From positions 4,730 to 68,729 of the forward strand of contig CAWIAY010000002.1 in the NCBI GenBank assembly GCA_963834315.1: 64,000 nucleotides of DNA, given 5' to 3'. Made by a program: the position numbers and the translations under genes. Source of the stretch: an uncultured Actinomycetota bacterium (GTDB lineage: Bacteria > Actinomycetota > Actinomycetes > Propionibacteriales > Nocardioidaceae). The stretch's first letter is position 1; each line of letters begins with the position of its first letter. A model generated the notes under the pieces. The model was not told the origin of the DNA and did no database searches. It saw only the letters and a program-made list of their open reading frames with translations. Shown piece after piece: positions 3,685-47,009 of the stretch.

Positions 3685-4632
3685 TCAAGGATCGCGCCGG
3701 GCGATGACTTCCTCCAGCTCGTCGATGCGCTGCTGCAGACCGGAGATCGTGGCAGCACTCCTCGCCTCTCGGTCGAGCCAGTCCGGCAGGTCCGTCCCCA
3801 GCTCCGGTTCGTCGTCGCGTGGACCGGTGGTGTCCTCATGCCTGGGGATCCTGCGCAGAACCACGTAGAACTCGACGAGGCCCCGGGGCGCGTGGACCCG
3901 CTCGACCCGCCAGGGGTGTAGGCCGAGCCCACGCAGCTCCGCGACCTGGTCGACGAAGGAGGCCGGGGTGAACGTCCACACGTGCGCGTCCACGTAGTCG
4001 CCCTCCAGCGCCCTACGCACCTGGTCCATCACCTCGGCCGGGCTGTTCTCCCGCTCCGCCAGGCCCGGAGGGCGGGCTCCGGCCCACAGCGCGGCGGTGT
4101 CCACGTCGACCTTGGACCGGTAGAAGTCGTAGACCGCCCGCACGGACGGGACCTCGTCGTGCGCGTAGTGGGCACGAAGAATCTCCCCCACGGTGGTCTC
4201 GGGTCGAAGCACGTCGAAGCAGTAGCGCCGGTCCGGGATCGCCAGGAAGAGCGCACCGTCATCTCGCGTCACCTCGGCGAGCTGGCTCAGCCAGTCGACA
4301 AGATCCGGCACGTGCTCGACCACGTGGGAGGCCAGCACCCAGTCGTAGGGCGCGCTCGGGGCGGCCGCCTCCGCAAGGCTCCGGATCCCATCGGGACCGT
4401 GGAGGACGAAGTCGATCTCGGGGATCAGCTCGACCTCGACCAACGGGTCCTCGCGATAGCTCGCCACCAGTCGCTCCCGGCTGAAGACGTCGAGGTAGCG
4501 AACGTCCGCGGCTCCGCGCTGCACGATCGGGGTGTGCAACGGACCGACCTCCAGTCCCGTCCCCTGTGCGAAGTCGAACAGCTCCCAGATGGCGCGCCGA
4601 CGTCCCTCGGCTACGTCATCCTGTTCCGGCAT
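3685..4632 (-). CDS. Class I SAM-dependent methyltransferase of the glycan-locus type, with a short C-terminal coiled coil
   Basis: GLEVGPLHTP motif I, YDWVLASHVVEHVPD, LFLAIPDRRYCFD. C-terminal ATISGLQQRIDELEEVIARR. Upstream TAGGCT -10 and GAGGAG RBS. Confidence 0.8.
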   Translation of the reverse strand: MPEQDDVAEGRRRAIWELFDFAQGTGLEVGPLHTPIVQRGAADVRYLDVFSRERLVASYREDPLVEVELIPEIDFVLHGPDGIRSLAEAAAPSAPYDWVLASHVVEHVPDLVDWLSQLAEVTRDDGALFLAIPDRRYCFDVLRPETTVGEILRAHYAHDEVPSVRAVYDFYRSKVDVDTAALWAGARPPGLAERENSPAEVMDQVRRALEGDYVDAHVWTFTPASFVDQVAELRGLGLHPWRVERVHAPRGLVEFYVVLRRIPRHEDTTGPRDDEPELGTDLPDWLDREARSAATISGLQQRIDELEEVIARRDP

Positions 4633-4687: not shown

Positions 4688-7222
4688 TCACCGCGGCGGC
4701 TGCGCCCCCGCCTTCACCCGAGCCAACAGTCGACGGGTGTTGGCGTCGTCGACCGGGCCGTGGAGGAGTCGCACCCGTCGCCACCGTTCCTCGAGCTGTC
4801 CTGCGCTCGGGGTGTCGAGCAGACCGTCGAGGGCGGCCATCAGCTGGTCGAAGTCCTGGCAGACGGGACCGGGGAGGACGCAACCGAGGTCGTAGAAGAG
4901 ATCCGGGACCTCGCCGGTGAGATAGCTCACCACGGGTCGGCCGGTGACCATGAACTCCGTGGCGCGCGACGACCAGTCCGTGAGCATGGCGACGGCGACC
5001 CTGTCGTGCACCACGGTGCTCGGGAACTGTCCGTAGCCCAGACGGATGGACGCGAGCGGCTCCATGAGGTGTGACAACCTGCGCGAGGTGTCGGCCGGGT
5101 CGTCGCGGAAGCCGAGCACCACCGACTCCTGCTCGCACCAGCGGTTGACCCGCCGCGCCTGGTCGTCCGTCAGGGTCCACCCCCGCCCGTGCTCGAAGCT
5201 CGGGACGACCAGGACGAGGCGTCGATGGTCCAGCAAGGCACGCAGCTCACGCTCCTCGGACTGCAGCGCCGGGGGAAGTACGTCGAAGGGGCTCACCACC
5301 AGGTCGTTGCGGGGCGCGCCGGTCGGCCAGACGTCCTCGAACCCCAGCGGGAAGAAGGCGGCTGAGGCGGCCAGTCGGGCCAGTCCGTCCGAGCTCACGA
5401 CGGCGTGGCATCCCGAGGCATCCTCGAGCTCTTCCGTCGTGGCGGCGAGGTCGGCACGTCCGTGCCGGACGAGCGAGGGCGCACCGACGTTGATGAAGCG
5501 GTGGCGCCTCGGTGAGATCGGATACGTGACGCAGGTTCGGGGCTTGTCCGTGACGAAGACGGTCCCGGACCTGACCAGGTGCAGCTGTCCCTCGGAGCTC
5601 CTGAGCGGGTGGACCACGACGTTCGCGCCGTCAAGGAGCACCCGGCGCGTCCTGGTGAGGACGATCTTCTTGATGGAGGGATCCTCGCGCACGGACTCGA
5701 ACACCGCGCGCTGGTCCCCCGACAGGAGGTGGTCTCGGGGGGAGACGGGAAAGGCCCACCAATGGTCGAACTTGGGCGCGTATCGGTCTTCCTCGACCAG
5801 CGCGCGACCGACCAGCGGGGTGGGCTGGTCGACCCGCCCGTCGTCACCGGTGACGAGAGAGAAGCTGCGGTGCAGGCTGTCCGCGGCCGACACCCTGAGC
5901 AGGTTCCGCTCCACCTTGTCCAGGTCCGCCTCGGGGGCGAGGGCAGCGACTCGTTCGCGCCAGTTGACGAGGTCCGGGACGTTGCGGCTGTTCTCCGAGA
6001 GGAAGTTCCGCTTCAGCAGGGGGAAACCGAGGCGAAGGAGGTCGAAGTACTGCGCGGTGTAGAGCGGGTGGAACGGGTACAGCTCGTCGATGAACGTGCT
6101 GAAGTCGAAGCCCCTGCACATCAGGTAGCGACTCAGGCCGATCTCGTACTTGTAGATGACGAGGACCTTCTGCGACTGGGGCGCGACGGCGTCGAACCGT
6201 TTGCGGAAGCCCGGGTCCACAACGACCGGGCGCCGCAGAACCAAGAAGTAGGAGCTGATGTGGAGGTGGTCGAGCTCGCTCATGAAGCGCTCGCCGATCA
6301 TCTCGGCCTTGGCCTGCGCGATCGGCAGGGGTCGTCCCCCGTTGGAGTCGCGCTCGAAGTCGTGCCTGGTCATCTGCAGGCCCCACCAGTCGCACGGCCG
6401 TTGATCCATCTCGTCGAACACGTCCTCGAGGGAGCGGACGAGGAAGCCGCTGTCGTTGGCCAGGATCACCTCGTCGTAACCGTCGAGGACGTCCCAGCCG
6501 ACGAGGTCGCGGGCGAGCGTGGCGTAGGAGCCGAAGTCGTAGGCGCCGTGCGGCAGCGCCCAGGCCTGCCGCGTCACCTCGCGGAGCTTGAGCAGCTCGG
6601 CGGCGTGGATGAACCCGTCGGCGAGGTAGTACACGTCGGCGAAGCGACTGAGCTCGCGGAGGTAGTCGACGACGTAGTCGTCGATCATCCCGTCGGGGTC
6701 GTAGCCGGCGAACAGGCACACCCGTCGTGGCGTGGCCCCGCTCGGGTAACGCGTCGGGGGGCGGGTCTCGTGTCGCGGCGGGACCGGGTCAGCGCTCTCA
6801 CGCCGTCCGAGCACCAGGAAGTGCAGGAGCGGGTTCACCTCGTCCGTGGCGGGATCCAGGTACTCGGACCAGTACCACCACACGTCGAACGCTGTGCTGG
6901 GGTTGCGCAGCAGGCGCCAGCCAACCTCGCAGAAGTGAACGAGAGGATCGAGGTCACCTGCTCGCACGTCCGCGTTGGCGCGGCGGTAGGCACGCGCGTC
7001 GAACAAGTCGCTTCCCCGGATCACCTCGACCGCGCAGCGTGCCGAGAGCTCCTCGCCGAGCCGGTCGTCCTCACCGCCGGACGGGAGTCCGTCGGTGACC
7101 GCTTCGAGGCCGGACTCCAGAAGCTCGTCGACGAGCGCCCGGGCCTTCCCCGGCGCCTTCTGCAGCTGCGCCCACCGCGTGACGAACCGGGACCACCGCA
7201 GGAGGAACTCGGCCTGCCTCAT
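4688..7222 (-). CDS. Multidomain glycopolymer protein: FDxxWY repeat + RgpF (rhamnan synthesis F)-like domain + degenerate TagF-like domain
   Basis: RgpF-like motifs YDFGSY, ILANDS, DWWG, HISSYF, YEIGLS, FPLLKR. TagF-like C-terminus lacks WHG (INVGAP) and the second His (GFRDDP). ATGA overlap with the upstream paralog. Confidence 0.75.
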   Translation of the reverse strand: MRQAEFLLRWSRFVTRWAQLQKAPGKARALVDELLESGLEAVTDGLPSGGEDDRLGEELSARCAVEVIRGSDLFDARAYRRANADVRAGDLDPLVHFCEVGWRLLRNPSTAFDVWWYWSEYLDPATDEVNPLLHFLVLGRRESADPVPPRHETRPPTRYPSGATPRRVCLFAGYDPDGMIDDYVVDYLRELSRFADVYYLADGFIHAAELLKLREVTRQAWALPHGAYDFGSYATLARDLVGWDVLDGYDEVILANDSGFLVRSLEDVFDEMDQRPCDWWGLQMTRHDFERDSNGGRPLPIAQAKAEMIGERFMSELDHLHISSYFLVLRRPVVVDPGFRKRFDAVAPQSQKVLVIYKYEIGLSRYLMCRGFDFSTFIDELYPFHPLYTAQYFDLLRLGFPLLKRNFLSENSRNVPDLVNWRERVAALAPEADLDKVERNLLRVSAADSLHRSFSLVTGDDGRVDQPTPLVGRALVEEDRYAPKFDHWWAFPVSPRDHLLSGDQRAVFESVREDPSIKKIVLTRTRRVLLDGANVVVHPLRSSEGQLHLVRSGTVFVTDKPRTCVTYPISPRRHRFINVGAPSLVRHGRADLAATTEELEDASGCHAVVSSDGLARLAASAAFFPLGFEDVWPTGAPRNDLVVSPFDVLPPALQSEERELRALLDHRRLVLVVPSFEHGRGWTLTDDQARRVNRWCEQESVVLGFRDDPADTSRRLSHLMEPLASIRLGYGQFPSTVVHDRVAVAMLTDWSSRATEFMVTGRPVVSYLTGEVPDLFYDLGCVLPGPVCQDFDQLMAALDGLLDTPSAGQLEERWRRVRLLHGPVDDANTRRLLARVKAGAQPPR

Positions 7223-9774
7223 CCTCGACCCCCCCCGGCGTAGAGCCTCTTCACGCGATCGACCACGCGGACGGCGTTCTGGTCGTCGAGGTGGTCGAAG
7301 AAGATGCGGCGGCGCCCCTCGTACGACGGGGATGGCCCCTGTCGTGTGCCGTCGAACAGCAGGTCCATCGCTCGCGACAGCTGCTCGAAGTCGGCACAGA
7401 CGGGTCCCGGGAGGACGTCCTCGAGCTCGTAGAAGAGCCCGCGCTCGTCGTCGCGGTAGCGGTCGTGGTCGTAGGCAAAGCTCACCACCGGTCGTCCCGT
7501 GACCAGGAAGTCGACCAGACAGCTCGAGTAGTCGCTCACCACCGCGCTCGCAACCCGATAGACGACCTCGACGTCGGGGAACCTGCCGGCGGACAGGTCG
7601 AGGACCCCGAGATCCTCGAGCTGGCGGGTGTAGGCGTGCGCCGTGTCCGCCATGTGCTCACGGACTCCGAGCACGGCGCCGTGCCGGCGCTGCCACTGCG
7701 AGAGCCACTCGAGCTCGCCCTCGGAGAAGGTGTAGTAACCCTCTTCCTGGTCATCGCGGAAGGTGGGGCAGAAGAGCACGAGCTTGCGGTCTCCGACGAG
7801 ATCGCGGAGCTCCGCCAGCTGCCGACGCAAGTCCCCCGGAAGGCGGGACTCGGCCCTCAGGACGAAGTCGAAGCGCGGCAGTCCGGTCACCCACATGTCG
7901 CGGATCGAGAGCGGCGCGAACGCCGCCGCCATCGCGAGACTGTCGACCCGGGAGGAAGCGATGACGGCGCGCGAGCGGGAGTTCTCCAGCAACAGCTGGT
8001 CCCGGACGTCGTCGATGCCGTGCGAGGCGAGACCGAACCGCTTGAGCGGGATGCCGTGCCAGAGGTTGACGATGTTCCGGCGCTCGGGGAGGAGCCGGAA
8101 GCCGACATTGATCCGGGCACCGTGCTTGACGAAGAGCTGACCTGCCCGCAGGAGGTAGTGCTGGCCCTCAGGACTCTCGAGGGGCACGGTCACCACGTTC
8201 TGTCCCTCCAGCTCCACCGCGCGGCTCCGCGTCAGCACGATCTTCTTCACCGACGGGTCATCGGCCACCGCTTCGAAGACGGCTCTCTCGTTCCCCGTGA
8301 GCTGGTGGGTGAAAGCACAGACCGGGAAGGCCCACCAATGGTCGAACTTCGGCGCCCAGCGGTCTTCCTCGACCAGGTCGTCCGGCTCGAGCATCTCGGG
8401 CACCACCGGGCTACCCGCCTCGTCGGCGGTCACGCTGTGGGCCCGCCGCATGACGTCGTCGGCGGAGCTCCGCACGAGGTCCAGCTCGATGCGGCGCAGA
8501 TCAGCGCCCGGAGAGACGGCACGGAGCCGCTCCTTCCAGTCGGCCAGGTCGGGCAGGAGGGCCGGGTTCTCGGCCAACAACCGACGGGACACGAACGGGA
8601 CCCCCTTCGCGACGAGAGCGAACGGATCGGGTCCCAGGAAGGGGTCGTCGCCGACGTGCTCCCCCAGGAAGGTCGCAAGGCAGTGACCACGAGCAGAGAG
8701 CAGTCGCGTCAGGTTGATGCCACGCCACGGATCGGCGAGCGACCGCTGCTCGGTCGCGCACACCTCGAAGAAGCGCCGGACCTCCACGTCCTCCAGCACC
8801 GCACGTCGGAGACCGACGAGGGGCCCGGACCACGAGAAGGCCTCGAGGTCCGTCTCGTCGAGGACGCGGAGCCCCGCGTCGTCGTGGCCGTCCTCGGCGG
8901 TCCCTGCCCCAGAGGTGGCGATCGACCACCAGTCCGAGGGACGGGTGGCCATCTCGGCGAGCAGAGGCTCCAGGTCGTCGACCAGGAAGGCATTGTCCCC
9001 GGCGAGCAGCACCTCGTCGTAGTCCGCGAGCCGCTCCCACCCCACGAGCCGGGCCGCCAGCCGGGCGTGCGAGGTGAGGTGTCCTCCGTCGTGGCGGGTC
9101 GACCAGGCCGCCGACACGTACGGACCGAGCTGCTCCCGCTGTACAGCTCCCATGGAGGAGTCGTCGAGGTAGTACACGTCGGCGTGACGCGAGAGCTCGC
9201 GGACCTGGTCGACCGCAGTGGGGTCCAGCACTCCGTCGCGGTCGTGTCCCGCGAAGAGGCAGGCACGGCGCGGCGAGCTCGGGAGGGTGGTGGCGGGTGC
9301 GGCCCCGGGGTGCGGCAGGGACGGCCGGGTCGCCACTGCCTGCAGGTGTCCGGCCACGACGTAGTGAAGGAATGGGTCGACGTGCTCGCTCCCGGGTCCG
9401 AGGTTCACCCATCGGTACCACCACAGGTCGAAGTCGGCACGAGGACGGCGGAGCTCCCGCCAGCCTCGGCGGCAGAAGTGCTCCAGCGGGCTGCGGCGCA
9501 CCGATGTCCTGGACGGGTCGCGCTCCTCGCCGTAGTCGGACTCGGGCTGGTCGACGATCAGGAGCAGGTCGAGATCCTCGTCGAGCGCGGGACCCTGCCG
9601 GGCGGCGTAGAACTCCGCGTCGAAGTACCCGCTCGCGCGGATCACCTCGATCTCGTCGAACACGCTCAGGACCGGCCAGCGCGCGGGGTCCGGATCGGGG
9701 CTCGAACCGGTGAGCTGCTCGAAGGCCCGGCGTGCCGCCGCGACGTCGGGCGCGGCGACCTGCTCCGCCGTCAC
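7219..9774 (-). CDS. Multidomain glycopolymer protein: FDxxWY repeat + degenerate RgpF-like domain + intact CDP-glycerol glycerophosphotransferase (TagF-like) domain
   Basis: NLWHGIPLK, TGLPRFD, FCPTFR, VREHM and SDYSS are all present. Collinear paralog of 4688..7222, sharing EEDRxAPKFDHWWAFPV. Confidence 0.8.
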   Translation of the reverse strand: MTAEQVAAPDVAAARRAFEQLTGSSPDPDPARWPVLSVFDEIEVIRASGYFDAEFYAARQGPALDEDLDLLLIVDQPESDYGEERDPSRTSVRRSPLEHFCRRGWRELRRPRADFDLWWYRWVNLGPGSEHVDPFLHYVVAGHLQAVATRPSLPHPGAAPATTLPSSPRRACLFAGHDRDGVLDPTAVDQVRELSRHADVYYLDDSSMGAVQREQLGPYVSAAWSTRHDGGHLTSHARLAARLVGWERLADYDEVLLAGDNAFLVDDLEPLLAEMATRPSDWWSIATSGAGTAEDGHDDAGLRVLDETDLEAFSWSGPLVGLRRAVLEDVEVRRFFEVCATEQRSLADPWRGINLTRLLSARGHCLATFLGEHVGDDPFLGPDPFALVAKGVPFVSRRLLAENPALLPDLADWKERLRAVSPGADLRRIELDLVRSSADDVMRRAHSVTADEAGSPVVPEMLEPDDLVEEDRWAPKFDHWWAFPVCAFTHQLTGNERAVFEAVADDPSVKKIVLTRSRAVELEGQNVVTVPLESPEGQHYLLRAGQLFVKHGARINVGFRLLPERRNIVNLWHGIPLKRFGLASHGIDDVRDQLLLENSRSRAVIASSRVDSLAMAAAFAPLSIRDMWVTGLPRFDFVLRAESRLPGDLRRQLAELRDLVGDRKLVLFCPTFRDDQEEGYYTFSEGELEWLSQWQRRHGAVLGVREHMADTAHAYTRQLEDLGVLDLSAGRFPDVEVVYRVASAVVSDYSSCLVDFLVTGRPVVSFAYDHDRYRDDERGLFYELEDVLPGPVCADFEQLSRAMDLLFDGTRQGPSPSYEGRRRIFFDHLDDQNAVRVVDRVKRLYAGGGRG

Positions 9775-10325
9775 GTGCCCGACGTGTCCGCGTCGCGGTC
9801 CGAGCCCTGCTGGAGGAAGTGCAGCAGCGGATTCATGCCGGACCGTCGGACGTCGGGGTGGGCCTCGAGGTACTCGGTGACATCGAACTTGGGACCGGGG
9901 TCACGTCCCTCCTTGTGCCCGTCACGGAGGAAGTGGAGCGCCGGGTCGACCCCGCCTCGGGCGATGTCGAGATTCTGCCGGAGATACCACGCCGGGCGGA
10001 AGTAGCTCGACTGCCGCAGGATCTGGACCTGCTCCCACTCCTGACGACTGATCCGTCCCTGACCTGCTCGGTACCAGGCCCCGCGAGCCCGCTCCCGGGT
10101 CTCCTTGTTGAGGGTGTCGGCCAGCGACTTGGCCAGGATCTCGGACTCCTTCTGGGCCTTCGCCTTCGAGCGACGCAACCGAGCCTGGGTCTCGGCGACC
10201 TCCTCGTAGTCCTGGCGTGCCCGCGCCAGCTCGAGCCGCGTCTGCGCGAGCTCTTCGCGAAGCCGCTCGAGCTCGACTGTTGGGTCGGAGCCATCACGCA
10301 ACGGCCCCTGTGCTGCGGTTCCCAA
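9771..10325 (-). CDS. Hypothetical protein: coiled coil plus stand-alone FDxxWY/HF repeat domain
   Basis: 3' part of the 9771..11438 ORF. TTG start at 10325 after an AGGAG RBS. ELERLREELAQTRLELARARQ coiled coil, then YFRPAWYLRQN..PALHFL..GRDPGPKFDVTEYL..NPLLHFL. GTGA overlap with the next gene. Confidence 0.65.
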   Translation of the reverse strand: MGTAAQGPLRDGSDPTVELERLREELAQTRLELARARQDYEEVAETQARLRRSKAKAQKESEILAKSLADTLNKETRERARGAWYRAGQGRISRQEWEQVQILRQSSYFRPAWYLRQNLDIARGGVDPALHFLRDGHKEGRDPGPKFDVTEYLEAHPDVRRSGMNPLLHFLQQGSDRDADTSGT

Positions 10326-10399
10326 CGAACGTCCTCTCCTCACCGGGGCGGGGTACCGGGCCCGCCGATGACCGCTGACCGTAACACGGGCGTCAGCCC

Positions 10400-11818
10400 T
10401 CAGATGAAGACGTTGAGGAACGATGCCAGCGCCAGCACGGCGAGGGCGCGGGCCAGCACGACCCCCCGGAAGGTCCACCCCGCCAGCGCGATGAAACCGG
10501 CCAGGAATCCATACCCGTAGCGAGGCGGAAGGGCGAAGTAGAGGTTGTTGCCGTAGAGGTTCGCGGCGGTGAGGACCACGGGGCCGACGACGGCCATCAC
10601 AAGCATCCCCCACGCCAGCGCACTTGCCTCCACGTTGCGTCGGAGGGCCACCACGCCGGCGAGCACCGCGAAGCTCAGCACCCCCACCATCAGTCCTTCC
10701 ATCCGCACGTTGACCACGCTCTCCAGGAACGACGCGTTGAAGTTGCCGACGTTGGGCGTGAAGAAGTTGAAGAACAGCTGCGCCTTGATCTGCAGCCACG
10801 GGACGACCGCCGGGGGCATCGCGTCGGCGGCGGCGGCGACCTCGGGTGGCAGCGGGCGCAGCACCCAGGCAAGTGACAGGACCACGAACACCGCGCCCAC
10901 GACTGCTGCGAGGGACAGTCCCCGCAGCCACCCGCGCGCCCGACCCGCCGCGCCGCTCGCGGAGATCGCGCGGATCAGGAGGACGGTCATCGCCACGCCC
11001 ACTGCCGTGATGGCCGTCAGCTTCGTCACTGCGGCGAGAGCCACCACGAGGACGAGCCAGCCCGTGGCACGGCGGCTGCCGTCGTGGGCGGCCGCGGCCA
11101 GCATGACGAGCCCGCCCATGACCGCGGTGGCCGTGTCCGGGCCGACCGTTGCCGCCGACGTGACCGCGTCGCTGGAGGTGCCCACCAGGACGGCCGCAGA
11201 CGCGGCGGCGACCCTGCCCGCGCCGATCCGGCGACCGAGCGCGTAGCCCACGCCCATCAGACCCGCGAGCCACAGGATCCCGACACCGCGGACCAGCGTC
11301 ACCAACGGGATGTCGATGACGTAGGCGATCGGCCGGGTGAGCGCCGCCGTGACGAAGTAGTAGAGCGGCGCGGTGGATCCCGCGGTCGACTTCCCACCGC
11401 CCGGGAACGCGTTCGGATCGAAGCGGTCGCTGCGGCACGGAGGCCAGGGGTACTGAGCCAGACCCTGGTCGAACAGGTCCTCGGGGTAGCCGCGGCAGGC
11501 GGTCATCCTGAGGCTGTCCTGGGACAACGTGTCAACACCCGTGGGAATGTCCGGGAGGATGCGGATGTAGTCGAAGTGGGCATTCTCGTCGATGGGCGAG
11601 AGGTACGGGTACTTGAACATGTGCCAGCCCACGACCGCAGCGGCGACGACGAGGAAGAGGGCGGCGGGGGCCAGGATGCGAACGGGCGGGAGCCACGACG
11701 ACAGGGCCCGACGACGCCCCGAGACGGGGGCTCCTCCGCGCCCGCCGCCTGTCTTCTCCTGCTCACGTGTCTCAGCGATTTCTCTCACTGGCCCTCTCAC
11801 GAACGCTTCACCGACCAC
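10400..11818 (-). CDS. Polytopic membrane protein, probable GT-C-fold glycosyltransferase
   Basis: About 11 hydrophobic segments; acidic SPIDENAHFDY motif in the first extracytoplasmic loop; C-terminal PPRYGY. Confidence 0.55.
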   Translation of the reverse strand: MVGEAFVRGPVREIAETREQEKTGGGRGGAPVSGRRRALSSWLPPVRILAPAALFLVVAAAVVGWHMFKYPYLSPIDENAHFDYIRILPDIPTGVDTLSQDSLRMTACRGYPEDLFDQGLAQYPWPPCRSDRFDPNAFPGGGKSTAGSTAPLYYFVTAALTRPIAYVIDIPLVTLVRGVGILWLAGLMGVGYALGRRIGAGRVAAASAAVLVGTSSDAVTSAATVGPDTATAVMGGLVMLAAAAHDGSRRATGWLVLVVALAAVTKLTAITAVGVAMTVLLIRAISASGAAGRARGWLRGLSLAAVVGAVFVVLSLAWVLRPLPPEVAAAADAMPPAVVPWLQIKAQLFFNFFTPNVGNFNASFLESVVNVRMEGLMVGVLSFAVLAGVVALRRNVEASALAWGMLVMAVVGPVVLTAANLYGNNLYFALPPRYGYGFLAGFIALAGWTFRGVVLARALAVLALASFLNVFI

Positions 11819-25119: not shown

Positions 25120-25619
25120 AGCCCGGCCGCCTGAGCCTCACCGAGCGCCGTGAGTCGGTCGCGGAGCCGGGCGGCCTCGGGGGCCGGCAGGCCGGGGATG
25201 TGGGCTGAGGTGCCCGGAGCCGCGGTGTGCATCTGCACCCGCGCCAGCCCGTAGGCGCGATCGATCGGTCCGGCCTGGACGTCGACGTACTGCATCCGCC
25301 CGTAGGGCACCACCACGAGCCGACGGAACATCGCACCGCGGGTGACGTAGAGCTCCCCGTCGAGCTCGGCATAGCCCCAGCGCCGGGCGTTCCGACCGAT
25401 CAACCACCAGACCCAGCCCCCCACACCGGCCAGCACGACGATCCCCAGAGCAGGCACCCACAGGGGCAGGTCGAGGAACACCTCCAGCACCACCACGACG
25501 AGGGTGAGGACGACAAGGACGGCGCTCAGGACTGCGCGCCGCAGGTGCGCCAACCGGGGGGAGACAGGTTGCCACGAGGTGCCGGGCGGGGCGAAGAGGT
25601 CGTCGTCCGTGCCCGTCAT
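25116..25619 (-). CDS. Bacterial PH-domain membrane protein (YdbS-like)
   Basis: Two TMs then WGYAE..L..TRG...VPYGRMQYVDV.AGPIDR..GLA. Leaderless TACGCT-N7-ATG. Confidence 0.87.
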   Translation of the reverse strand: MTGTDDDLFAPPGTSWQPVSPRLAHLRRAVLSAVLVVLTLVVVVLEVFLDLPLWVPALGIVVLAGVGGWVWWLIGRNARRWGYAELDGELYVTRGAMFRRLVVVPYGRMQYVDVQAGPIDRAYGLARVQMHTAAPGTSAHIPGLPAPEAARLRDRLTALGEAQAAGL

Positions 25620-25649
25620 GGCTCAGAGCGTACGTGCAAGGATGACGCG

Positions 25650-26333
25650 GTGAGCGCACCGCGGGGAGACGGGTCGGCCGGCCACGACCTGCCTGGCCAC
25701 CTCTTCATCGTCACCTACGGCCGTTCCGGCTCGACGCTGCTCCTGGGCGTCCTCAACTCCATCGACGGATACCTGATCCGCGGCGAGAACGACGGTGCGG
25801 CCTACCGGTTGCACCAGTTCCACACCGACACCGTCAATCGCAAGCGTCGGCTGCGCAAGCGATTCGAGATCCCGCTCGACACGACCAACCCGCACTTCGG
25901 CCTCGACGACTTCCCGGCGGCGGTCTCCCTGCGGATGCTGCGACGACTCGTCACCACGACGTTGTTGCGACCCGAGCCCGACACCAGGGTGACGGGCTTC
26001 AAGGAGATCCGGTGGTACCAGGACGACCTTCCGGCGTATGTCGACTTCCTGCGCGAGCTGTTCCCGGGCGCCCGGTTCGTGATCAACACGCGCGACCACG
26101 CGGCGGTTCTCGCGAGCGGCTGGTGGCCCGAGAAGCCGCTCGACGGACGCCTGGAGCGGATGGAGCAGGCGATTCTCGACCTCGCCGACTCCCTCGGTGA
26201 GGCGGCCTACCGCGTGCACTTCGACGACTACACTGCCGACCCAACGGCCCTCCGAGGCCTCTATGAGTGGCTCGGGGAGGACTTCGACGAAGCCCGGGTG
26301 CGCGCGGTGCTGGGTGTCCGTCATTCTGTCTGA
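25650..26333 (+). CDS. Sulfotransferase-family protein
   Basis: FIVTYGRSGSTLL (5'-PSB-like P-loop), GFKEIRW, FVINTRD, YRVHFDD. GTG start after an AAGGA RBS. Confidence 0.75.
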   Translation: MSAPRGDGSAGHDLPGHLFIVTYGRSGSTLLLGVLNSIDGYLIRGENDGAAYRLHQFHTDTVNRKRRLRKRFEIPLDTTNPHFGLDDFPAAVSLRMLRRLVTTTLLRPEPDTRVTGFKEIRWYQDDLPAYVDFLRELFPGARFVINTRDHAAVLASGWWPEKPLDGRLERMEQAILDLADSLGEAAYRVHFDDYTADPTALRGLYEWLGEDFDEARVRAVLGVRHSV

Positions 26334-27215: not shown

Positions 27216-27359
27216 GAGGGGGCTGGTCCATGAGCGCCCAATGGTTGGCCACTGCAAGGGATTTCGACCCCAACGGGGGTGGATGGCTAGACTTTCGGGC
27301 TGTCGTACACCCGTCAGTCCCGACTAGGCACACGGGCGGTTCACCCGCCGGGTACTCAG

Positions 27360-30300
27360 ATGGTTGCTGGTAGTCAGCCCCGGCCAGGTCCCGAGGGGCC
27401 GTCGGCGGTTCGGACGTCCGCGCGCCGGCTCGCCGATCGGTTCCTGGCCAGGCGCAACCCCGAGGCACCCGACGACGCCGCTCCCGACTCGGGCGACCCG
27501 CGACCCACGCGCATCGACCGTCTGCTCGAGTCGGGCCTCTTCGACGTCGAGTTCTACACCGCCACGGCCGGCAGGGAGTTCGAGTCCGAGCGGCACGCGG
27601 CGCGCCACTGCATCAACGTCGGCATGCCCCAGGGGCACTCGCCCAACCCGCTGCTCGACATCTACTCCGTGCCACGCACGGTGCGCACCGCCTGGCGGCG
27701 GGGCCAGATCGGCAAGGTCGTCGACCACCTCGAGTCCGAGGGGGGCTGGGGCGCCTCCTCCGGACCCCTCTTCTACCCCCCGGCCCTCACCCACCCCCTC
27801 ATCGGGCAACATCACGGCGGCTCGGCGATCGCGCAGTTCCTGACTCGCGCGGACGCGGACACCCTGTTGCCCGTTCCTCCCGGCTACTGGGGCCCCGCGC
27901 CCACCTTGGCGCAGACGCGGGCGACGCTCATCGCCCATGCGCGCGCAGCCTCCGGCTCCCTGCACGACGACGACATGCCACGAGCCGCCGGCCACGACGC
28001 GGCGATCGCGACCCTCGGCGCGGAGCTGGAGGGGCATCACCTCGCCCCTTCGGTCTCGCCACGGGTCTCGCTCGTGTGCGGGCCGCCCTCCTCCCCCCGT
28101 GAGTTCATCGAGATGATCGACCGACTCCGGGGGCAGACCATGACCAGCTGGGAGCTGCTCATCCCCTCCGGGGACTGGGACCCCGAGCTGAACCGCGTGG
28201 TCGACGTCGCCTCGACGCGGGACCCGCGCATCAGGGTCGTCGAGAGCTGCCCCGGTGCCGACAGCGAGGGCGCCTGCGCATCGCTGTGGACGGCACTGGG
28301 CGAGTTCGTCGGCTTCGTGACCCCGGGCACGGCCTGGGACGGCGACTACCTGCGTGCCATGTCCTCGGCTCTCCACGCGCGTGGGCTGCTGGCCGCCCAG
28401 GGCTGGCTGGTCAAACGGGACGACGAGGACGGCAACGAGGTGCTGCACTCCTTCGGCGAGGCGCACGATGTGCTGGTGCACTCGCGCGAGGTCAGCCTCG
28501 GCGCGGCCATGGTCCGCCGCGACGCCCTCGTCGGCGACCACCTGCACCACGTGTGCCAGGCCACGCGCACGGAGGCGGCGGGGCTGCAGTTCCTGCTGGA
28601 GGTCTCCCATGACACCCGGTGGCCGCTGCTCCCCCTGGTGGCCGGGCACGTCGTCGACACGCTCGTCGGAACCGCACCACCGGCGGGTGCGCGCGCGGCA
28701 GCCGACGTGGTCCAGGAGCATCTGCTGGCCTGCCAGGGCAGCCGTCGACGACCCCGAGAGCGGGTGCCAGGACGCATCTCCATCGTGGTGCCGACCTCCG
28801 ACGAGTTCAGGATGACGATCGCGGCGGTGTCCGCCACCCTCCGCACCACGAGCACCGACGACATCGAGGTGGTGATCGTCGACAACGGCTCCAAGGCGGA
28901 GGTGGGCGCTCGCCTCGTGGCGGCGTTCCTCACCGAGCCTCGGGTGCGCTACCACCGCGTCGCCCGCAACGTGAACTTCGCCCTGGGCTGCAACATCGGG
29001 TTCGCCGAGTCGAGCGGCGAGTTCGTGGTGTTCCTCAACAACGACACCATCCCGCGCGGCGACTGGCTGGGGGCGATGCTTCCGGGCCTGGAGGACCCGT
29101 CGGTCCGTGGGGTCCAGCCCCTGCTGCTCTATCCCGATGACAGCATCCAGAGCGCCGGCCTCTACTTCCCGGCGAAGGACACCCTCCCGTGCCACTTCCT
29201 GGTGGGTCACCCGCCCGAGGACGCACACCGCGCCGGGGAGCGCCGGTTCTACGCCGCGTCCGGGGCAGCCCTGCTGCTGCGTGCGGCCGAGTTCGAGGCC
29301 CTGGGAGGCTTCGACGTCGAGTTCGTCAACGGGATGGAGGACGTCGACCTCTGCCTGCGCGCGAGGGAGCTCTTCGGAGGTGCCTTCGCGGTGGTGCCGG
29401 AGGCGCGGGTCACCCATCTCGAGGGCAAGACGCCCGTGCGCCCCGAGGTCGTCCTCGCGAACCGCGCGTCCTTCATGCGGCGGTGGCGATCGCGGCTCCC
29501 CGTTCCCGACACCGACCGGTTGAGCGACATCGGCTTCCGGCTCGCGCACATCGGCGCCGACGACGTCGCCATCCCGGTGCCGCGTCCGGTGCTCACCCGC
29601 GAGGTCGGAGGGAGCCTGGTCGGCTCTCCGCAGCGGTTGAGGTGGGGGATCAAGCTGCCCTCGATCCCAGGCCCCTCCGGAGACCACTGGGGCGACACGC
29701 ATCTGGCTCGCTCCCTCGCGGCCGCGCTGCGCGAGCTCGACCAGGACGTCGTCACCTACCGCCGCGGCACCCACCAGTCCAACGCGTCGTACCTCGACGA
29801 CGTGGTGCTCGGCATCCGCGGGCTCGAGAGGATCCACCCCCAGGCCGGCAAGATCAACGTGCTCTGGGTGATCAGTCACCCCGATGACGTCACCGTCGAC
29901 GAGCTGCACTCCTTCGACCTGGTGTTCGCAGCCTCCGAGTCGTGGAGCCGGCAGATGACCGCGCGCTCCGGACGGCGAGTGCAGGTGCTTCGGCAAGCGG
30001 TCGACGCTCGTCAGCTGCCCTCTGCCGACGCGCCGACCGGCGACGGCTCGCGGCCCGTGTTCGTCGGCGGCAAGTACGGCGACCGGCGGCGTCAGGTCGT
30101 CTTCGACGCCATGCAGGCCGGCATCGACTTCGAGGTGCACGGTCCGGGATGGGAGGGGCTGATCCCGGCACCCGTCCTGCGCAGCAGCTACGTGCCCAAC
30201 CACGAGGTCACTGCGGTCTACAGGTCGCGCGGTCTCGTCCTCGCCGACCACTGGGACGACATGGCACGTGAAGGCTTCATCGCCAACCGGATCTTCGACG

Positions 30301-30539
30301 CGGTCGGCGCGGGTGCGAGGGTGATCAGCGACGACGTGCCCGGCATCGAGGACGCCTTCGACGGCGCCGTGCAGGTGTACCGCTCGGTGGACGAGCTGGC
30401 GTTCCTGTGCAGCGACGAGGGGCGCAAGCGCTTCCCGGACGCCGAGACGCTGACGGCGATCGCCCGGCGGATCCGCGAGGAGGAGTCGTTCCTCTCCCGC
30501 GCCCGGGTGCTGGTGGATGCGGCCCGCCGCGCCCTCTGA
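27360..30539 (+). CDS. Multidomain glycosyltransferase: FDxxFY repeat + degenerate GT2 + GT2 + C-terminal GT-B (CgeB/YkvP-like)
   Basis: SGLFDVEFY near the N-terminus; ISIVVPT..VDNGS..FLNNDT..GMEDVDLCLR; C-terminal VFVGG..HGPGW..DHWDDM..GFIANRIFDA. Confidence 0.8.
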   Translation: MVAGSQPRPGPEGPSAVRTSARRLADRFLARRNPEAPDDAAPDSGDPRPTRIDRLLESGLFDVEFYTATAGREFESERHAARHCINVGMPQGHSPNPLLDIYSVPRTVRTAWRRGQIGKVVDHLESEGGWGASSGPLFYPPALTHPLIGQHHGGSAIAQFLTRADADTLLPVPPGYWGPAPTLAQTRATLIAHARAASGSLHDDDMPRAAGHDAAIATLGAELEGHHLAPSVSPRVSLVCGPPSSPREFIEMIDRLRGQTMTSWELLIPSGDWDPELNRVVDVASTRDPRIRVVESCPGADSEGACASLWTALGEFVGFVTPGTAWDGDYLRAMSSALHARGLLAAQGWLVKRDDEDGNEVLHSFGEAHDVLVHSREVSLGAAMVRRDALVGDHLHHVCQATRTEAAGLQFLLEVSHDTRWPLLPLVAGHVVDTLVGTAPPAGARAAADVVQEHLLACQGSRRRPRERVPGRISIVVPTSDEFRMTIAAVSATLRTTSTDDIEVVIVDNGSKAEVGARLVAAFLTEPRVRYHRVARNVNFALGCNIGFAESSGEFVVFLNNDTIPRGDWLGAMLPGLEDPSVRGVQPLLLYPDDSIQSAGLYFPAKDTLPCHFLVGHPPEDAHRAGERRFYAASGAALLLRAAEFEALGGFDVEFVNGMEDVDLCLRARELFGGAFAVVPEARVTHLEGKTPVRPEVVLANRASFMRRWRSRLPVPDTDRLSDIGFRLAHIGADDVAIPVPRPVLTREVGGSLVGSPQRLRWGIKLPSIPGPSGDHWGDTHLARSLAAALRELDQDVVTYRRGTHQSNASYLDDVVLGIRGLERIHPQAGKINVLWVISHPDDVTVDELHSFDLVFAASESWSRQMTARSGRRVQVLRQAVDARQLPSADAPTGDGSRPVFVGGKYGDRRRQVVFDAMQAGIDFEVHGPGWEGLIPAPVLRSSYVPNHEVTAVYRSRGLVLADHWDDMAREGFIANRIFDAVGAGARVISDDVPGIEDAFDGAVQVYRSVDELAFLCSDEGRKRFPDAETLTAIARRIREEESFLSRARVLVDAARRAL

Positions 30540-30589
30540 ACGGTTCTGCCTTCGCCGGCCCGGGACGGGACGTGTCCTAGGGTACGAGG

Positions 30590-31453
30590 ATGCGCGGAAT
30601 CATCCTGGCCGGCGGGACCGGATCACGACTGCACCCGATCACGCTCGGTGTCAGCAAGCAGCTGATCCCGGTGTACGACAAGCCGATGATCTACTACCCG
30701 CTCTCGACGCTGATGCTGGCCGGGATCAGGGACGTGCTGGTGATCACCACCCCCGAGGACGCCAGTGCCTTCCATCGACTGCTGGGGGACGGGTCCAAGC
30801 TCGGCATCTCCTTGACCTACGCCGTCCAGGACGCGCCCAACGGGCTCGCCGAGGCGTTCATCATCGGTGAGGAGCACATCGGCGACGACGCCGTGGGGCT
30901 GATCCTCGGCGACAACCTGTTCTACGGGCCAGGACTCGGCACGCACCTGCAGGACATGGCGGAGCCCGAGGGAGCCACCATCTTCGGCTACCGGGTCGCC
31001 GATCCGACCGCCTACGGCGTCGTCGAGTTCGACGCCTCCGGTCGCGCCATCTCCTTGGAGGAGAAGCCCCAGAAGCCCAAGAGCAGCTATGCCGTGCCCG
31101 GTCTGTACTTCTACGGCAACGACGTCGTGAAGCTCGCCCACTCCCTGCGCCCCTCTGCGCGCGGTGAGCTGGAGATCACCGACCTGAACCGGATCTACCT
31201 CGAGCAGTCCCGCCTGACCGTCGAGATCCTGCAGCGTGGGACGGCCTGGCTCGACACAGGCACCGTGGACGACCTCAACGAGGCATCCAACTTCGTGCGA
31301 ACCATCGAGTCTCGACAAGGGCTGCGGATCGGGGTGCCCGAGGAGGCGGCCTGGCGGATGGGCTGGCTCAGCGACGACCAGCTCGCCGAGTGCGCCGCAC
31401 CCCTGACCAAGAGCGGCTACGGCACCTACCTGCTCAGCCTGCTGCAGCGCTAG
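30590..31453 (+). CDS. rfbA: Glucose-1-phosphate thymidylyltransferase
   Basis: [61 protein letters not shown]. Leaderless TAGGGT-N6-ATG. Confidence 0.96.
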
Positions 31454-32513
31454 GACCGCGGAGCAGTCCTCTCCACGACTCCAACGACTCCGGAGTCATC
31501 GTGCGATCGCGACGGACCAGGTCGCGCGCCGAGCGCCCCTGCGAGAGCGCGTGGGCGACCGCGTCGACCCACTGGTCAGGGGTGGCGGCCGTCGCGGCCA
31601 GGCCCCCGGAGCCACCGAGCCGGTAGGGCCCCACCGGTGAGGCGACGACCGGGAGGCCGAGAGCGGCGTACTCCAACAGCTTGAGGTCGCTCTTGGCGTG
31701 GTTGAAGCGCTCGTCCACGAGCGGGGCCAGCCCGACTGACCACCGTGCCTGGTTGCGACGCAGCCAGGCCACGAAGCCTGGGTAGTGGGTCTTGAGCGGG
31801 AGCAGCCGTCGCGTGCCCGGCGGCAGGTCCGACGCGGTGATCCCGACGACCTCGATGACCACGGGTCTCGCCAACCGCGCGGTCAGGCGCTCCGGCAGCC
31901 CGTCGAGCAGGCAGAGGTCGTCGGCGTGGGTGCTGCTCCCCATGTAGAGAAGCCTGAGCTCCGCGTCCTCCCCGACCTCCAGGTCCGGGGCAGCGGGATC
32001 AGCATCGAACCAGAGCAGAGGATCGAGCTCGTTGGGCACCACTGACACCCGCCCGGGCCGAAGTGGTCCGACGAGATCTGCGAGGTGCCCGGTGCTGACG
32101 ATCACCTGGTCGGCCCTGCGCAGGATCCCGGCCAGCGCGTCGAGCTGGTCCAGCGCGTACCCCTGGTCCCCCAACCGAGCACGCGCCTCGTCGGTGACGA
32201 GATCGTCGTCGAGGTCGACCACGACACGAGTGCCCTCGTCGGTTGCACGCGCGACCAGCGCATCCACGCAGGTCGAGGGCACGGCGTCCCGCACCACCAG
32301 CAGGGTGTCGGGACGGGCGGACTCCCTCGCTGCATAGTCCTCCGCCGACACCCGGGTGAAGTCGAGACCGGACCCCGTGCTGTTGCGTGCCCTCCGGTGC
32401 ACCCGGATCGCCGCGGACGGCGGGGTTCGCCGCAGCCCGCCCTTGTCCACGATCGTGACCCGGTACGTCGAAGGCGCGGATGGTCGGCGCCTGAGCAACC
32501 CCTGCCGTCCCAT
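31434..32513 (-). CDS. GT-B glycosyltransferase (GT4-like)
   Basis: [55 protein letters not shown]. Start placed at ATG 32513 after GAGGAAGGA. Confidence 0.75.
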
Positions 32514-32616
32514 TCGCGTCGTCCTTCCTCGGTGCGACCGCCTCATGCTAGGTCGTCCCCGCTGGCCCGAGGAGCACCACCCGGCCCGCCTGCTTGCTTG
32601 GCCTACACTCGCGGCC

Positions 32617-33927
32617 ATGCGCGTATCGGTGATCGGCTGCGGCTATCTCGGCGTGACCCACGCCGCGGGGATGGCCGAGCTCGGCTACGACGTGATCGGT
32701 CTCGAGATCGACGCTGCCAGGGTGGCCGAGCTGTCGGCAGGCCGGGTGCCGTTCTACGAGCCGGGTCTCGAGGAGCTGCTCGCGCGGCACGTGCGCGAGG
32801 GCAACCTGCGGTTCACCACGTCGTACGAAGAGGCAGGCGCCTTCGCCGGCGTGCACTTCCTGTGTGTGGGCACTCCCCAGCAGGCGAACGGCCTCGGCGC
32901 CGACCTGAGCCAGGTCGAGGCCGCGGTCGCCTCGCTGGCGCCCCACGTCGTCGGCGACGCCCTCGTCGTCGGGAAGTCCACCGTGCCGGTCGGCACCGCC
33001 CAGCGCCTGGCCCCCCTCCTCGCCCAGGGTGCTCCGGTGGGCACGACGCCACGACTGGCGTGGAACCCCGAGTTCCTGCGCGAAGGCTTCGCCGTCAAGG
33101 ACACCCTCGCGCCCGATCGGCTCGTCTTCGGCGTGAGCGAGCCGACGGCCGAGGCGACCCTCCGCGAGGTCTACGCCAAGACGCTCGCCGACGGGACGCC
33201 GTGTGTCGTCACCGACCTGGCCACCTCGGAGCTGGTCAAGGTGTCGGCCAATGCCTTCTTGGCCACCAAGATCTCCTTCATCAACGCGATCGCCGAGATC
33301 TGCGAGGTGGCCGGCGCCGACGTGAAGGACCTGGCCGATGCACTCGGCCACGACGCCCGGATCGGCCGCAAGTTCCTCAATGCCGGCATCGGGTTCGGAG
33401 GCGGCTGCCTGCCCAAGGACGTCAGGGCGTTCCAGCACCGCGCCGGCGAGCTCGGCGTCGACCACCTCACCAGCCTGTTGCGCGAGGTCGACGCGATCAA
33501 CATGCATCGGCGCGACCGGGTCGTGGAGATGGCGCGGGACATGCTCGGTGACCTGGGTCAGGCGCGAGTTGCCGTGCTGGGAGCCGCGTTCAAGCCCGAC
33601 AGCGACGATGTCCGTGACTCGCCCGCCCTCTATGTCGCCGGGCAGCTGCACCTCGCGGGCGCCCAGGTGACGGTCTACGACCCGAAGGCCAACCACAACG
33701 CGCGTGGCCGGTTCCCGACCCTCGACTACGTCGACTCCACCGCGGCTGCCTGCGACCAGGCCGACCTGGTGCTCCACCTGACGGAGTGGCCGGAGTTCCG
33801 CTCGCTCGCTCCGGCCGACCTCGAGGACGTCGTCCGCCGGCGCCAGATCATCGACGGTCGCAACCTCCTCGACGCCGAGCCCTGGCGCGCTGCTGGTTGG
33901 ACCTTCCGGAGCATGGGCCGGCGTTGA
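32617..33927 (+). CDS. ugd: UDP-glucose/GDP-mannose 6-dehydrogenase
   Basis: VIGCGYLG, CVGTP, KSTVPVGT, NPEFLREG, ELVKVSANAFLATKISF, GFGGGCLPKD, FKPDSDDVRDSP, IDGRN. Leaderless TACACT-N7-ATG. Confidence 0.93.
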   Translation: MRVSVIGCGYLGVTHAAGMAELGYDVIGLEIDAARVAELSAGRVPFYEPGLEELLARHVREGNLRFTTSYEEAGAFAGVHFLCVGTPQQANGLGADLSQVEAAVASLAPHVVGDALVVGKSTVPVGTAQRLAPLLAQGAPVGTTPRLAWNPEFLREGFAVKDTLAPDRLVFGVSEPTAEATLREVYAKTLADGTPCVVTDLATSELVKVSANAFLATKISFINAIAEICEVAGADVKDLADALGHDARIGRKFLNAGIGFGGGCLPKDVRAFQHRAGELGVDHLTSLLREVDAINMHRRDRVVEMARDMLGDLGQARVAVLGAAFKPDSDDVRDSPALYVAGQLHLAGAQVTVYDPKANHNARGRFPTLDYVDSTAAACDQADLVLHLTEWPEFRSLAPADLEDVVRRRQIIDGRNLLDAEPWRAAGWTFRSMGRR

Positions 33928-38776: not shown

Positions 38777-39040
38777 AGGTTGAGGAGCGGGGCTCCCGCC
38801 GAGCCTGCGAGGTGAGCAGCGCGTCTCGCGGCCGAGCCTCGCGAGGACGCGAACGGGGCGGGAGGTTGAGGAGCCGGACTGCGACCGAGCCCGCGAGGGC
38901 GCAGCCCAGGCGTCTCGAAACCCCTGCCTGCCCCGAACCGCACGTATCAATCGCCCGGAGGCACGTCTCAACTCCCCGGAGGCACGTCTGAACATGGCTG
39001 GGGGCCGAGCCTGCGAGGGGGAGCACCGCGTCTCGAAACC
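38777..39040 (+). repeat. Cluster of REP-like intergenic repeats
   Basis: AGGTTGAGGAG x2 (about 38777, 38863), CCGAGCCYGCGAGG x3 plus one variant, GCGTCTCG(AAACC) x3, and CCCGGAGGCACGTCT x2 (38954, 38975). Confidence 0.7.
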
Positions 39041-39067
39041 ACCCCGGCCCCCGGTATCGTGCAGCCC

Positions 39068-46929: not shown

Positions 46930-47009
46930 TCGAGCTCCCTTTCGTGGACCCTCATGAACTGCCACGGCAGCCTATCGAGTCGCCTCGCGGGGACCGCAGC
47001 CCCGTCGCC

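Follow-up and report, generated by a model that had tools for sequence, protein, structure and literature searches.

We analysed a 64,000-nucleotide (nt) stretch of DNA from an uncultured bacterium of the Nocardioidaceae (Actinomycetota; assembly GCA_963834315.1, contig CAWIAY010000002.1, positions 4,730 to 68,729), referred to here as the window, and found on its minus strand two adjacent genes for RgpF-like plus TagF-like fusion proteins that are eroded in opposite halves. The upstream member, P1 (7219..9774, minus strand, 851 amino acids (aa)), keeps an intact TagF-type phosphotransferase domain and carries an eroded RgpF-like domain, whereas the downstream member, P2 (4688..7222, minus strand, 844 aa), keeps an intact RgpF-like glycosyltransferase domain and carries an eroded TagF-like domain. 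P1 and P2 share 39% identity across 823 residues (expectation value (E) 3e-163) and are paralogs of one such fusion. Each of the two chains combines a glycosyltransferase (GT) domain with a TagF-like domain, and neither holds both catalytic centres in competent form; the pair holds one of each. We infer from these genes a complex, a sugar and a product, namely a split co-polymerase in which P1 and P2 would form a hetero-oligomer making a teichoic-acid-like polymer, and we regard this reading as evenly poised between right and wrong.

The eroded RgpF-like domain of P1 spans residues 169-432 (8479..9270, minus strand) and its TagF (Glyphos_transf) domain residues 490-841 (7252..8307, minus strand), with His573 encoded at 8056-8058 and His707 at 7654-7656. 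The RgpF-like domain of P2 covers residues 166-440 (5903..6727, minus strand; YDFGS 228-232, NDS 256-258, SY 324-325, KYE.G 358-362 and KR 404-405) and its eroded TagF-like domain residues 485-835 (4718..5770, minus strand), with D707 and D708 at 5099-5104. Measured against the Pfam thresholds (22.1 bits for PF04464, Glyphos_transf; a gathering score of 25 bits for PF05045, RgpF), P1 reached 151.9 bits for Glyphos_transf over profile positions 24-365 of 367 and 18.1 bits for RgpF, which places it outside the Pfam RgpF family. P2 reached 72.5 bits for RgpF (residues 203-421, profile positions 7-210 of 503) and 34.0 bits for Glyphos_transf, the latter from its C-terminal 86 residues only (745-830, profile positions 270-358). 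The reciprocal domain erosion proposed in a preliminary description of this DNA was thus borne out by the per-domain scores, and the middle domain of P2 does match RgpF. Further, we aligned 188 homologs and defined invariant columns as those at least 95% conserved in the 145 members with all motifs of both domains. P2 kept 54 of the 54 RgpF-like invariant columns and P1 34, whereas P1 kept 70 of the 74 TagF columns and P2 41, so that the two paralogs do not score equally at the conserved positions. At the RgpF-like motif positions (YDFGS, NDS, SYF, KYE.G and KR) the counts were 16/16 for P2 and 4/16 for P1. The invariant columns of the N-terminal repeat region were complete in both proteins (11/11 each).

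Two invariant histidines are required in TagF, TagB, TarL and capsule polymerases (TagF H444/H584, TarL H300/H433; PMC5974469; PMC10901376), and their mutation leaves negligible activity (PMC10901376). H573 and H707 of P1 align with H444 and H584 of TagF (PDB 3l7i). P2 lacks both, the W-H of WHG being deleted and REH being changed to RDD. Because both experimentally essential histidines are gone, the TagF-like domain of P2 is almost certainly inactive as a phosphotransferase, and P2 would count as TagF-like by fold and not as a catalytic member. This domain still keeps R586, PR637-638, D640, R706, D749 and SS751-752. A minor observation on the reference structures is that the title of PDB 3l7m reads 'H548A' whereas the deposited sequence is altered at His584 (RMHYL to RMAYL), the title apparently being a typing error. 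In the RgpF-like domain of P1, YDFG, SY, both N and S of NDS, the K of KR and the entire KYE.G motif with its invariant Glu are missing, which strongly suggests that this domain is catalytically dead; it keeps D178, D184, D199, D253/E254, D260 (of NDS), D281-W283 and R323. Of the reciprocal active-site loss claimed in the preliminary description, the P2 half therefore stands on the missing histidines, and the P1 half is an inference from lost motifs. The replacement residues at the lost motifs differ among the orthologs of the window and of the related loci L002 and L003 (GHLTSH versus GRAGSR, INLT versus YVAGAG; related loci are numbered with the prefix L), which argues for lost catalytic constraint and not for a new conserved active site.

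Both eroded domains appear to have kept their fold. The AlphaFold2 models had a predicted local distance difference test (pLDDT) of 94.7 for P2 and 90.9 for P1, in which the eroded RgpF-like domain was modelled as a confident alpha/beta fold, although the alignments behind the models are dominated by intact homologs and may flatter the eroded domains. Foldseek searches of the PDB matched the P1 model to TagF (3l7j) with E 2e-21 and a template modelling (TM) score of 0.69-0.73, consistent with a GT-B-like TagF fold, and the P2 model to TagF with E 2e-13 and TM 0.67-0.69, indicating that the fold is kept. In the P2 model, the RgpF-like domain shows a Rossmann-like beta-alpha-beta order, and NDS follows immediately on strand 251-256. 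The top 50 matches of the whole P1 and P2 models were all GT-B/TagF and included none for the RgpF-like half, a profile of the RgpF-like domain matched nothing among the PDB sequences, and hhalign found no significant similarity between this domain and a window GT2 protein (probability 0.1).

We then compared evolutionary rates between orthologs. Between the window and L003, the eroded RgpF-like domain of P1 had a rate of 0.79 and the live TagF domain 0.33, and in P2 the live RgpF domain had 0.20 (82% identity to the L003 ortholog) and the eroded TagF-like domain 0.66; the eroded domains thus evolve 2-4 times faster than the live ones. The ratio of nonsynonymous to synonymous substitution rates (dN/dS) for the same comparison, in which dS (~0.9-1.0) is near saturation, was 0.55 and 0.47 in the eroded domains and 0.24 and 0.17 in the live ones. 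Our conclusion on selection therefore rests on L003 versus L002, where dS is ~0.1 and substitutions are few; here dN/dS was 0.21 (eroded) and 0.22 (live) in P1 and 0.27 (eroded) and 0.17 (live) in P2. Moreover, P1 and P2 are full-length in the window, L003 and L002, with neither stops nor indels in independent metagenome contigs. These data indicate that selection on the eroded domains is relaxed but clearly purifying, and that these domains are maintained and not decaying.

Upstream of the pair, a gene for a small protein (184 aa; 9771..10325, minus strand) begins with TTG behind a Shine-Dalgarno sequence, AGGAGAGGA. Its stop and the GTG start of P1 share a GTGA (9771..9774, minus strand), and the P1 stop and the ATG start of P2 share an ATGA (7219..7222, minus strand), both read directly in the sequence. 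The second overlap, under which P1 and P2 might be made 1:1, had been reported in the preliminary description and recurs in the ortholog L003. Pair, gene order and 4-nt overlap are all kept in L003, and pair and order in L002; tandem pairs of the family are as a rule joined through NTGA. Contigs of independent soil metagenomes cover the pair and its junction with 97-99% identity and 0 indels, so the pair is not an assembly artefact. Near-identical DNA occurs in soil metagenomes, all runs with the sequence being DNA-type soil runs. One in-frame joint, 6889 to 9602, was seen in two runs (X3 and X4, one sample); it skips 2712 nt and would fuse the P1 N-terminus to P2. A haplotype without P1 is the less likely reading of this joint: its short side is 23 nt, its depth is ~2 times the local depth and P1 fragments occur in the same sample, and it is probably a collapsed paralogous k-mer or repeat.

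Re-reading of the open reading frames (ORFs) placed both genes where the preliminary description had put them, and its motif calls were reproduced in translation: NLWHGIPLK, GLPRFD, CPTFR, REHM and DYSS together with the eroded GHLTSH, AGDN, SWSGPLV and RGINLT in P1, and YDFGSY, ANDS, HISSYF and YEIGLS together with the eroded NVG, PSFE and RDD in P2. The His codon that it located at 8056-8058 is that of His573. The quoted WSGPLV is present in P1 but lies one residue out of register with HISSYF. The observation of the pair was confirmed and its interpretation partly supported; the description omitted the minus strand, the conserved small gene upstream and the non-recent origin of the duplicates.

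The RgpF-TagF fusion family is widespread and mostly intact in both domains. One search gave 598 matches at E <= 1e-3 among the scored candidates, and 145 of the 188 aligned homologs kept both motif sets. The hosts include Nocardioides, Aeromicrobium, Mumia, Isoptericola, Demequina, Luteimonas, Lysobacter, Pseudoxanthomonas and Rhodanobacter, as well as the Pseudomonas fulva group, Massilia and roseobacters. We sorted ~75 non-redundant loci by the state of the two domains. Single genes were intact in both domains at 31 loci and intact in RgpF but eroded in TagF at 11, and convergent pairs with both members RgpF-intact and TagF-eroded accounted for another 11, all in Nocardioides (L052, L055, L058, L059, L063-L065, L069, L070, L073 and L075). 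Tandem pairs with overlapping genes were common and, given from upstream to downstream, took several forms. A TagF-eroded, RgpF-intact copy preceded a fully intact one at 8 loci, the fully intact copy came first and was followed by an RgpF-intact copy with TagF eroded or partly eroded at 3, and both copies were fully intact at 1 (Luteimonas L007). An RgpF-intact, TagF-eroded copy preceded a TagF-intact copy with a partly eroded RgpF-like domain at 2 loci (L018 and L081) and at 2 more (L083 of Mumia, and L084 if its cut neighbour is RgpF-intact and TagF-eroded). Among culturable relatives, Nocardioides terrae, N. agariphilus and N. ginsengisoli carry asymmetric pairs and Mumia sp. ZJ430 a partly reciprocal one. 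The split was complete, with the RgpF-intact, TagF-eroded copy upstream of an RgpF-eroded, TagF-intact one, at 2 loci (L078 and L079), and it had the opposite order at 3 (the window, L002 and L003). Fully reciprocal pairs therefore arose in the window clade and at least once elsewhere, there with the two genes in the reverse order. The TagF-like fold at the eleven convergent-pair loci would, judging from its motifs, serve a role other than phosphotransfer.

Other members of the family show further states. At L036 (9029-15545), two tandem copies share 78-81% identity; WHG (now QVRDALPLD) is the one motif missing from the downstream copy, in which PTFR, REHM and DYSS persist, and this looks like an early stage of TagF inactivation. 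A similarly young tandem duplicate with the same loss, also with 78-81% identical copies, lies at L039 (6776-12526; metagenome-assembled genome (MAG) MFD10113.bin.2.145). Its apparent natural fusion of 1916 aa was discarded as evidence for a complex; the linker is an arginine- and proline-rich out-of-frame read-through, most likely from a frameshift in the long-read MAG. Frameshifted or fragmented family copies occur at L008, L061 and L071. The roseobacter members (L035, L037, L040, L044, L053 and L067) are ~1200-1300 aa long with an extra C-terminal ~350 aa. One of them (L037, 9779-13390, Aliiroseovarius zhejiangensis) is solitary, with 6 of the 16 RgpF-like motif positions kept and TagF intact; the extra C-terminal domain of such proteins may supply the glycosyltransferase.

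Phylogenies were built at the neighbour-joining (NJ) level only, with 100 bootstraps. The full-length NJ tree suggested a single ancient TagF loss (3 changes), but this grouping received 0/100 bootstraps once the eroded region was left out, and no fewer than 7 changes were then needed for TagF loss. The clustering of the actinobacterial TagF-eroded copies in the full-length tree is therefore likely to be a long-branch artefact, and TagF loss has recurred several times in the family. RgpF erosion took ~9 changes in the NJ tree at the erosion threshold used. P2 fell among TagF-eroded proteins (61/100 for the clade), some of them encoded by solitary genes that occupy the same coaX...lysS site, and P1 grouped with TagF-intact proteins of the Nocardioidaceae (72/100). 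Two histories would account for this: loss of P1 from the relatives, or its recruitment beside a pre-existing P2-like gene.

The walls of Nocardioides have been reported to contain poly(glycosylglycerol phosphate) teichoic acids, with which the proposed product would agree. The preliminary description had suggested a polymer of rhamnose and glycerol phosphate, of which the second component is supported at the level of the family and the first weakly. In 27 proteobacterial loci, among them L007, L011, L014, L019-L025, L028, L030, L038, L041, L047, L049, L077 and L085, the family gene has a tagD-like cytidylyltransferase gene (~128 aa, PF01467) as its immediate downstream neighbour, and behind the latter there are often genes for more large TagF-like proteins that share the N-terminal repeats. 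At L085, genes for an ABC transporter lie upstream as well. The rmlA gene that the description had noted in the window is genuine (30581-31453; TIGR01207, 465 bits), but it lies 21 kb from the pair, and among the related loci only 7 have rmlA at a distance of up to 10 kb. In capsule polymerases of the GT-A/TagF-like type, hexose-phosphate is the group that the TagF-like domain transfers (PMC5974469). The literature searched yielded no paper on RgpF-TagF fusions or on the genetics of Nocardioides teichoic acids.

Based on these observations, we propose the following mechanism. In the ancestor, a single chain would have combined an RgpF-like glycosyltransferase domain of GT-A type with a TagF-like domain transferring polyol-phosphate, the two alternately adding sugar and glycerol-phosphate to give a teichoic-acid-like poly(glycosyl-polyol-phosphate). 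In the window, the phosphotransferase site would come from P1 and the glycosyltransferase site from P2, each chain contributing no more than this, the other domain of each chain being retained as a folded, selected, non-catalytic module. The small protein, P1 and P2 would be translated from one message through the GTGA and ATGA overlaps, and P1 and P2 would then assemble into a membrane-associated hetero-oligomer with one working site of each kind. Such a pair would be a natural version of the trans-complementation achieved in the laboratory between single-domain mutants of capsule polymerases. The hetero-oligomer is the most economical account because TagF-like enzymes are oligomeric, the genes are coupled, the architecture is kept and the silent domains are under selection. 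On a somewhat more tentative footing, the family as a whole may form a repeated evolutionary series, leading from homo-oligomeric bifunctional enzymes (Luteimonas) through asymmetric pairs (in which one copy has lost WHG alone, as at L036, or the entire TagF site) to obligate reciprocal hetero-oligomers (the window clade and L078/L079). If so, such polymerases would be oligomers for which a single site of each kind in the assembly suffices, and the silent domains would have become structural or allosteric partners.

Several observations weigh against the hetero-oligomer. No tagD was found among the window ORFs scanned, and the RgpF-like domain of P1, with several invariant acidic residues kept, could have residual or altered activity. 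P1 and P2 sit in different clades, so that the pair is not a recent local duplicate. P2-like proteins with RgpF intact and TagF eroded are solitary at the coaX...lysS site in L072 (N. iriomotensis), L076, L054 and L082, and these genes, together with the eleven convergent pairs in which both members are TagF-eroded, imply that P2-like proteins can work without a P1-type partner. At the same site in L050 (9381-15432; MAG MFD09848.bin.2.28), the small gene is followed by a TagF domain on its own (416 aa, 60% identity to the P1 C-terminus, with a 4-nt overlap) and then, in order, by genes for a methyltransferase, a GT2 and a membrane protein of PMT_2-like type; a bare TagF domain beside a separate GT2 implies that the eroded GT domain is dispensable in a relative. 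An association that speaks for the hetero-oligomer, RgpF erosion at 9 of 25 with an RgpF-intact paralog adjacent and at 3 of 32 without (Fisher p 0.02, not corrected for phylogeny), weakens to p 0.075 with the window clade counted once. All of this except the missing tagD, the kept acidic residues and the weakened association, along with the finding that the domains of capsule polymerases fold and act independently (PMC5974469), is also what would be expected if P1 and P2 were independent enzymes of one pathway with no obligate complex. P1 would then be a TagF/TarF-type glycerol-phosphate primase or polymerase, P2 would add a backbone or side-chain sugar, and the eroded domains would serve their own protein in membrane association, self-oligomerisation or acceptor binding. 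We consider this possible but rather unlikely. Pair and order persist in L002, and in L003 together with the overlap; the whole 850-aa architecture is under purifying selection in both proteins; and actinobacterial RgpF erosion was seen only beside an RgpF-intact paralog (the window clade, L078, L079, L081, L018 and L083, and L084, where the neighbour is cut and its RgpF-intact state is presumed).

The purifying selection on both eroded domains could also mean that they have acquired a new function, such as nucleotide or polymer binding, an allosteric module or a different transfer at a remodelled site. The conserved residues that persist in P1 (from D178 to R323) and in P2 (from R586 to SS751-752) fit this idea, as do the inactive domains of CHSY-CHPF, which stabilise the active ones (PMC13389171). 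It is nevertheless improbable in our view, given that the residues at the lost motifs are not conserved among the window, L002 and L003, that the eroded domains change 2-4 times faster than the live ones and that P2 has neither TagF histidine. Still less credible, and largely refuted, is the explanation that one or both genes are decaying duplicates whose pattern is meaningless. The raised dN/dS of the eroded domains between the window and L003 and the broken copies at L008, L061 and L071 are what decay would leave. However, the ORFs are intact at ~850 codons in the window, L003, L002 and independent metagenome contigs, the eroded domains have dN/dS of 0.21-0.27 between close orthologs, and each protein has one fully conserved catalytic domain. 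The split co-polymerase is the reading that we prefer.

The small protein upstream of P1 is 81% identical over 143 aligned residues to a 182-aa ORF of L003. It consists of an N-terminal coiled-coil-like half followed by two copies of a 'FD..Y ... DP.LHF..G..EGR.P' repeat, which also builds the N-termini of P1 and P2, and it has no relative in Pfam, NCBIfam or the PDB. ORFs of this kind (~160-190 aa) lie directly upstream of the family genes in most loci of both Actinobacteria and Proteobacteria, often with a 4-nt overlap (relatives at L003 6903-7451, L078 7045-7536, L079 1333-1833 and L082 5730-6311), and in convergent pairs each family gene has its own. The small protein could be a scaffold or a chain-length factor. 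Upstream of the operon lies a gene for a polytopic membrane protein (472 aa; 10400..11818, minus strand), delimited by frame analysis of G+C content at third codon positions (GC3) and possibly GT-C-like, with no Pfam or NCBIfam match above threshold. It is conserved in L003, L002 and L082 (69-81% identity), and the L050 protein at the same site has 36% identity to it and a weak PMT_2 match; this synteny suggests that the membrane protein is part of the system. A frameshift at 9771-11818 was ruled out: the frame change at ~10300 separates two conserved genes, whose ORFs are also separate in L003, L002 and L082. On the other side, 55 nt downstream of P2, a gene for an S-adenosylmethionine (SAM)-dependent methyltransferase (Methyltransf_23, 315 aa; 3685..4632, minus strand) is co-conserved in L002 and L003 (62% identity) and probably has a role in the system as well.

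The window has a G+C content of ~70%, and its glycopolymer genes are inserted within a conserved actinobacterial backbone (clpC - lsr2 - lysS ... coaX - nadC - nadB ... panD - panC ... folP - folE - ftsH). Its LysS and CoaX are 83-85% identical to their Nocardioides iriomotensis counterparts. A second tandem of GT2 plus TagF-like proteins is encoded at 47010-50105 and 43450-46971 (both minus strand, 38 nt apart). The upstream member keeps WHG, RGH and DYSS (TagF 303 bits) and has a weak GT2 (38 bits) with the DDGS-type motif replaced, and the downstream member has a strong GT2 (122 bits) with WHG changed to WSG and the following Lys lost. Because this pair shows the same pattern as P1 and P2, the reciprocal tendency may be a general habit of the glycopolymer machinery of this genome. 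Elsewhere in the window, two Sulfotransfer_3-family proteins (25209-26333 and 38870-40135, both plus strand) are encoded among glycosyltransferase genes. Nearby are two giant GT2 proteins (27291-30539 and 33618-37478), a UDP-glucose dehydrogenase-like protein (32338-33927) and a TagF+GT4 fusion (39862-42765). This gene content might point to a wall polymer that is sulfated or heavily modified in some other way.

Polymerisation of type II teichoic acids, which have sugar in the backbone, is largely unknown in Gram-positive bacteria (PMC5974469), and the abundant, uncharacterised RgpF-TagF fusion family is a candidate for it. The window pair is a natural experiment in which two activities lie on separate chains, silent domains remain under selection and relatives provide the intermediates. 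It bears on oligomeric action, on silent domains as structural partners and on the subfunctionalisation of multi-domain enzymes. In the literature searched, we found no description of a strictly reciprocal split in both gene orders in a bacterial TagF-like family. Annotation of the family is misleading at present: some members that lack the catalytic histidines are named 'CDP-glycerol glycerophosphotransferase family protein', and other members bear the name 'rhamnan synthesis F family protein'.

Compared with the individual enzymes, both halves of the fusion are related to known families but distinct from them. The C-terminal domain of P1 matches Staphylococcus epidermidis TagF (PDB 3l7i-m) with E 7e-14, the WHG and R.H histidines being aligned, and Staphylococcus aureus TarL (PDB 8va1) is a membrane-associated oligomer, a tetramer (PMC10901376). 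P1 nevertheless scores far under the NCBIfam equivalog cut-offs (TarF 68.9 versus 550, TarL 50.6 versus 1000), the N-terminal domains differ, and the P2 copy lacks both histidines. RgpF of streptococci and lactococci (PF05045) elongates rhamnan from dTDP-rhamnose, and the members of its family are not uniformly rhamnosyltransferases (PMC9574508). P2 matches the N-terminal 200 positions of the Pfam model, but only positions 7-210 of 503, and P1 stays under the Pfam threshold. For the RgpF family, we found neither a solved structure nor defined catalytic residues.

The closest known architecture is that of the TagF-like capsule polymerases (Litschko et al. 2018, PMC5974469; PDB 8qoy, 8a0c), among them Cps1B, Cps12B and CslB (GT-A/TagF-like), Cps3D and Cps7D (TagF-like/GT-B) and Bcs3. 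These enzymes make poly(glycosyl-polyol-phosphate) or poly(oligosaccharide-phosphate) resembling type II wall teichoic acid (WTA), and their single-domain mutants complement each other in trans (PMC5974469). Like the family described here, they join a GT and a TagF-like domain in one chain with the His pair corresponding to TagF H444/H584, and Foldseek links P1 to Cps3D and Bcs3. In contrast, the GT domain in the window belongs to the RgpF family (PF05045) and is neither K4CP-like GT-A nor TarM-like GT-B, a helical repeat of its own kind, and not an annotated tetratricopeptide repeat (TPR), forms the N-terminus, and the host is a Gram-positive actinobacterium and not a Gram-negative pathogen. 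Moreover, the active sites are divided over two paralogous chains instead of lying in one.

Such a division recalls, by analogy and not by homology, two eukaryotic glycosaminoglycan co-polymerases, each a heterodimer of paralogous subunits with two transferase-fold domains apiece, in which some domains are silent but stabilise the partner, as is proposed for P1 and P2. EXT1-EXT2 is a heterodimer in which one subunit keeps both activities and the other has lost one (bioRxiv 10.1101/2022.06.19.496623), and in CHSY-CHPF one subunit keeps both activities and the other none (PMC13389171). They are unrelated to the window pair in sequence, fold families, chemistry and kingdom, and the window pair is fully reciprocal, with one live site per chain. 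Asymmetric states like those of the eukaryotic pairs do occur among its relatives, in which a fully intact copy stands beside a TagF-eroded one. If the proposed evolutionary series holds, the window pair would give bacteria a counterpart of EXT1-EXT2 and offer a first entry point into type II WTA polymerisation in Actinobacteria.

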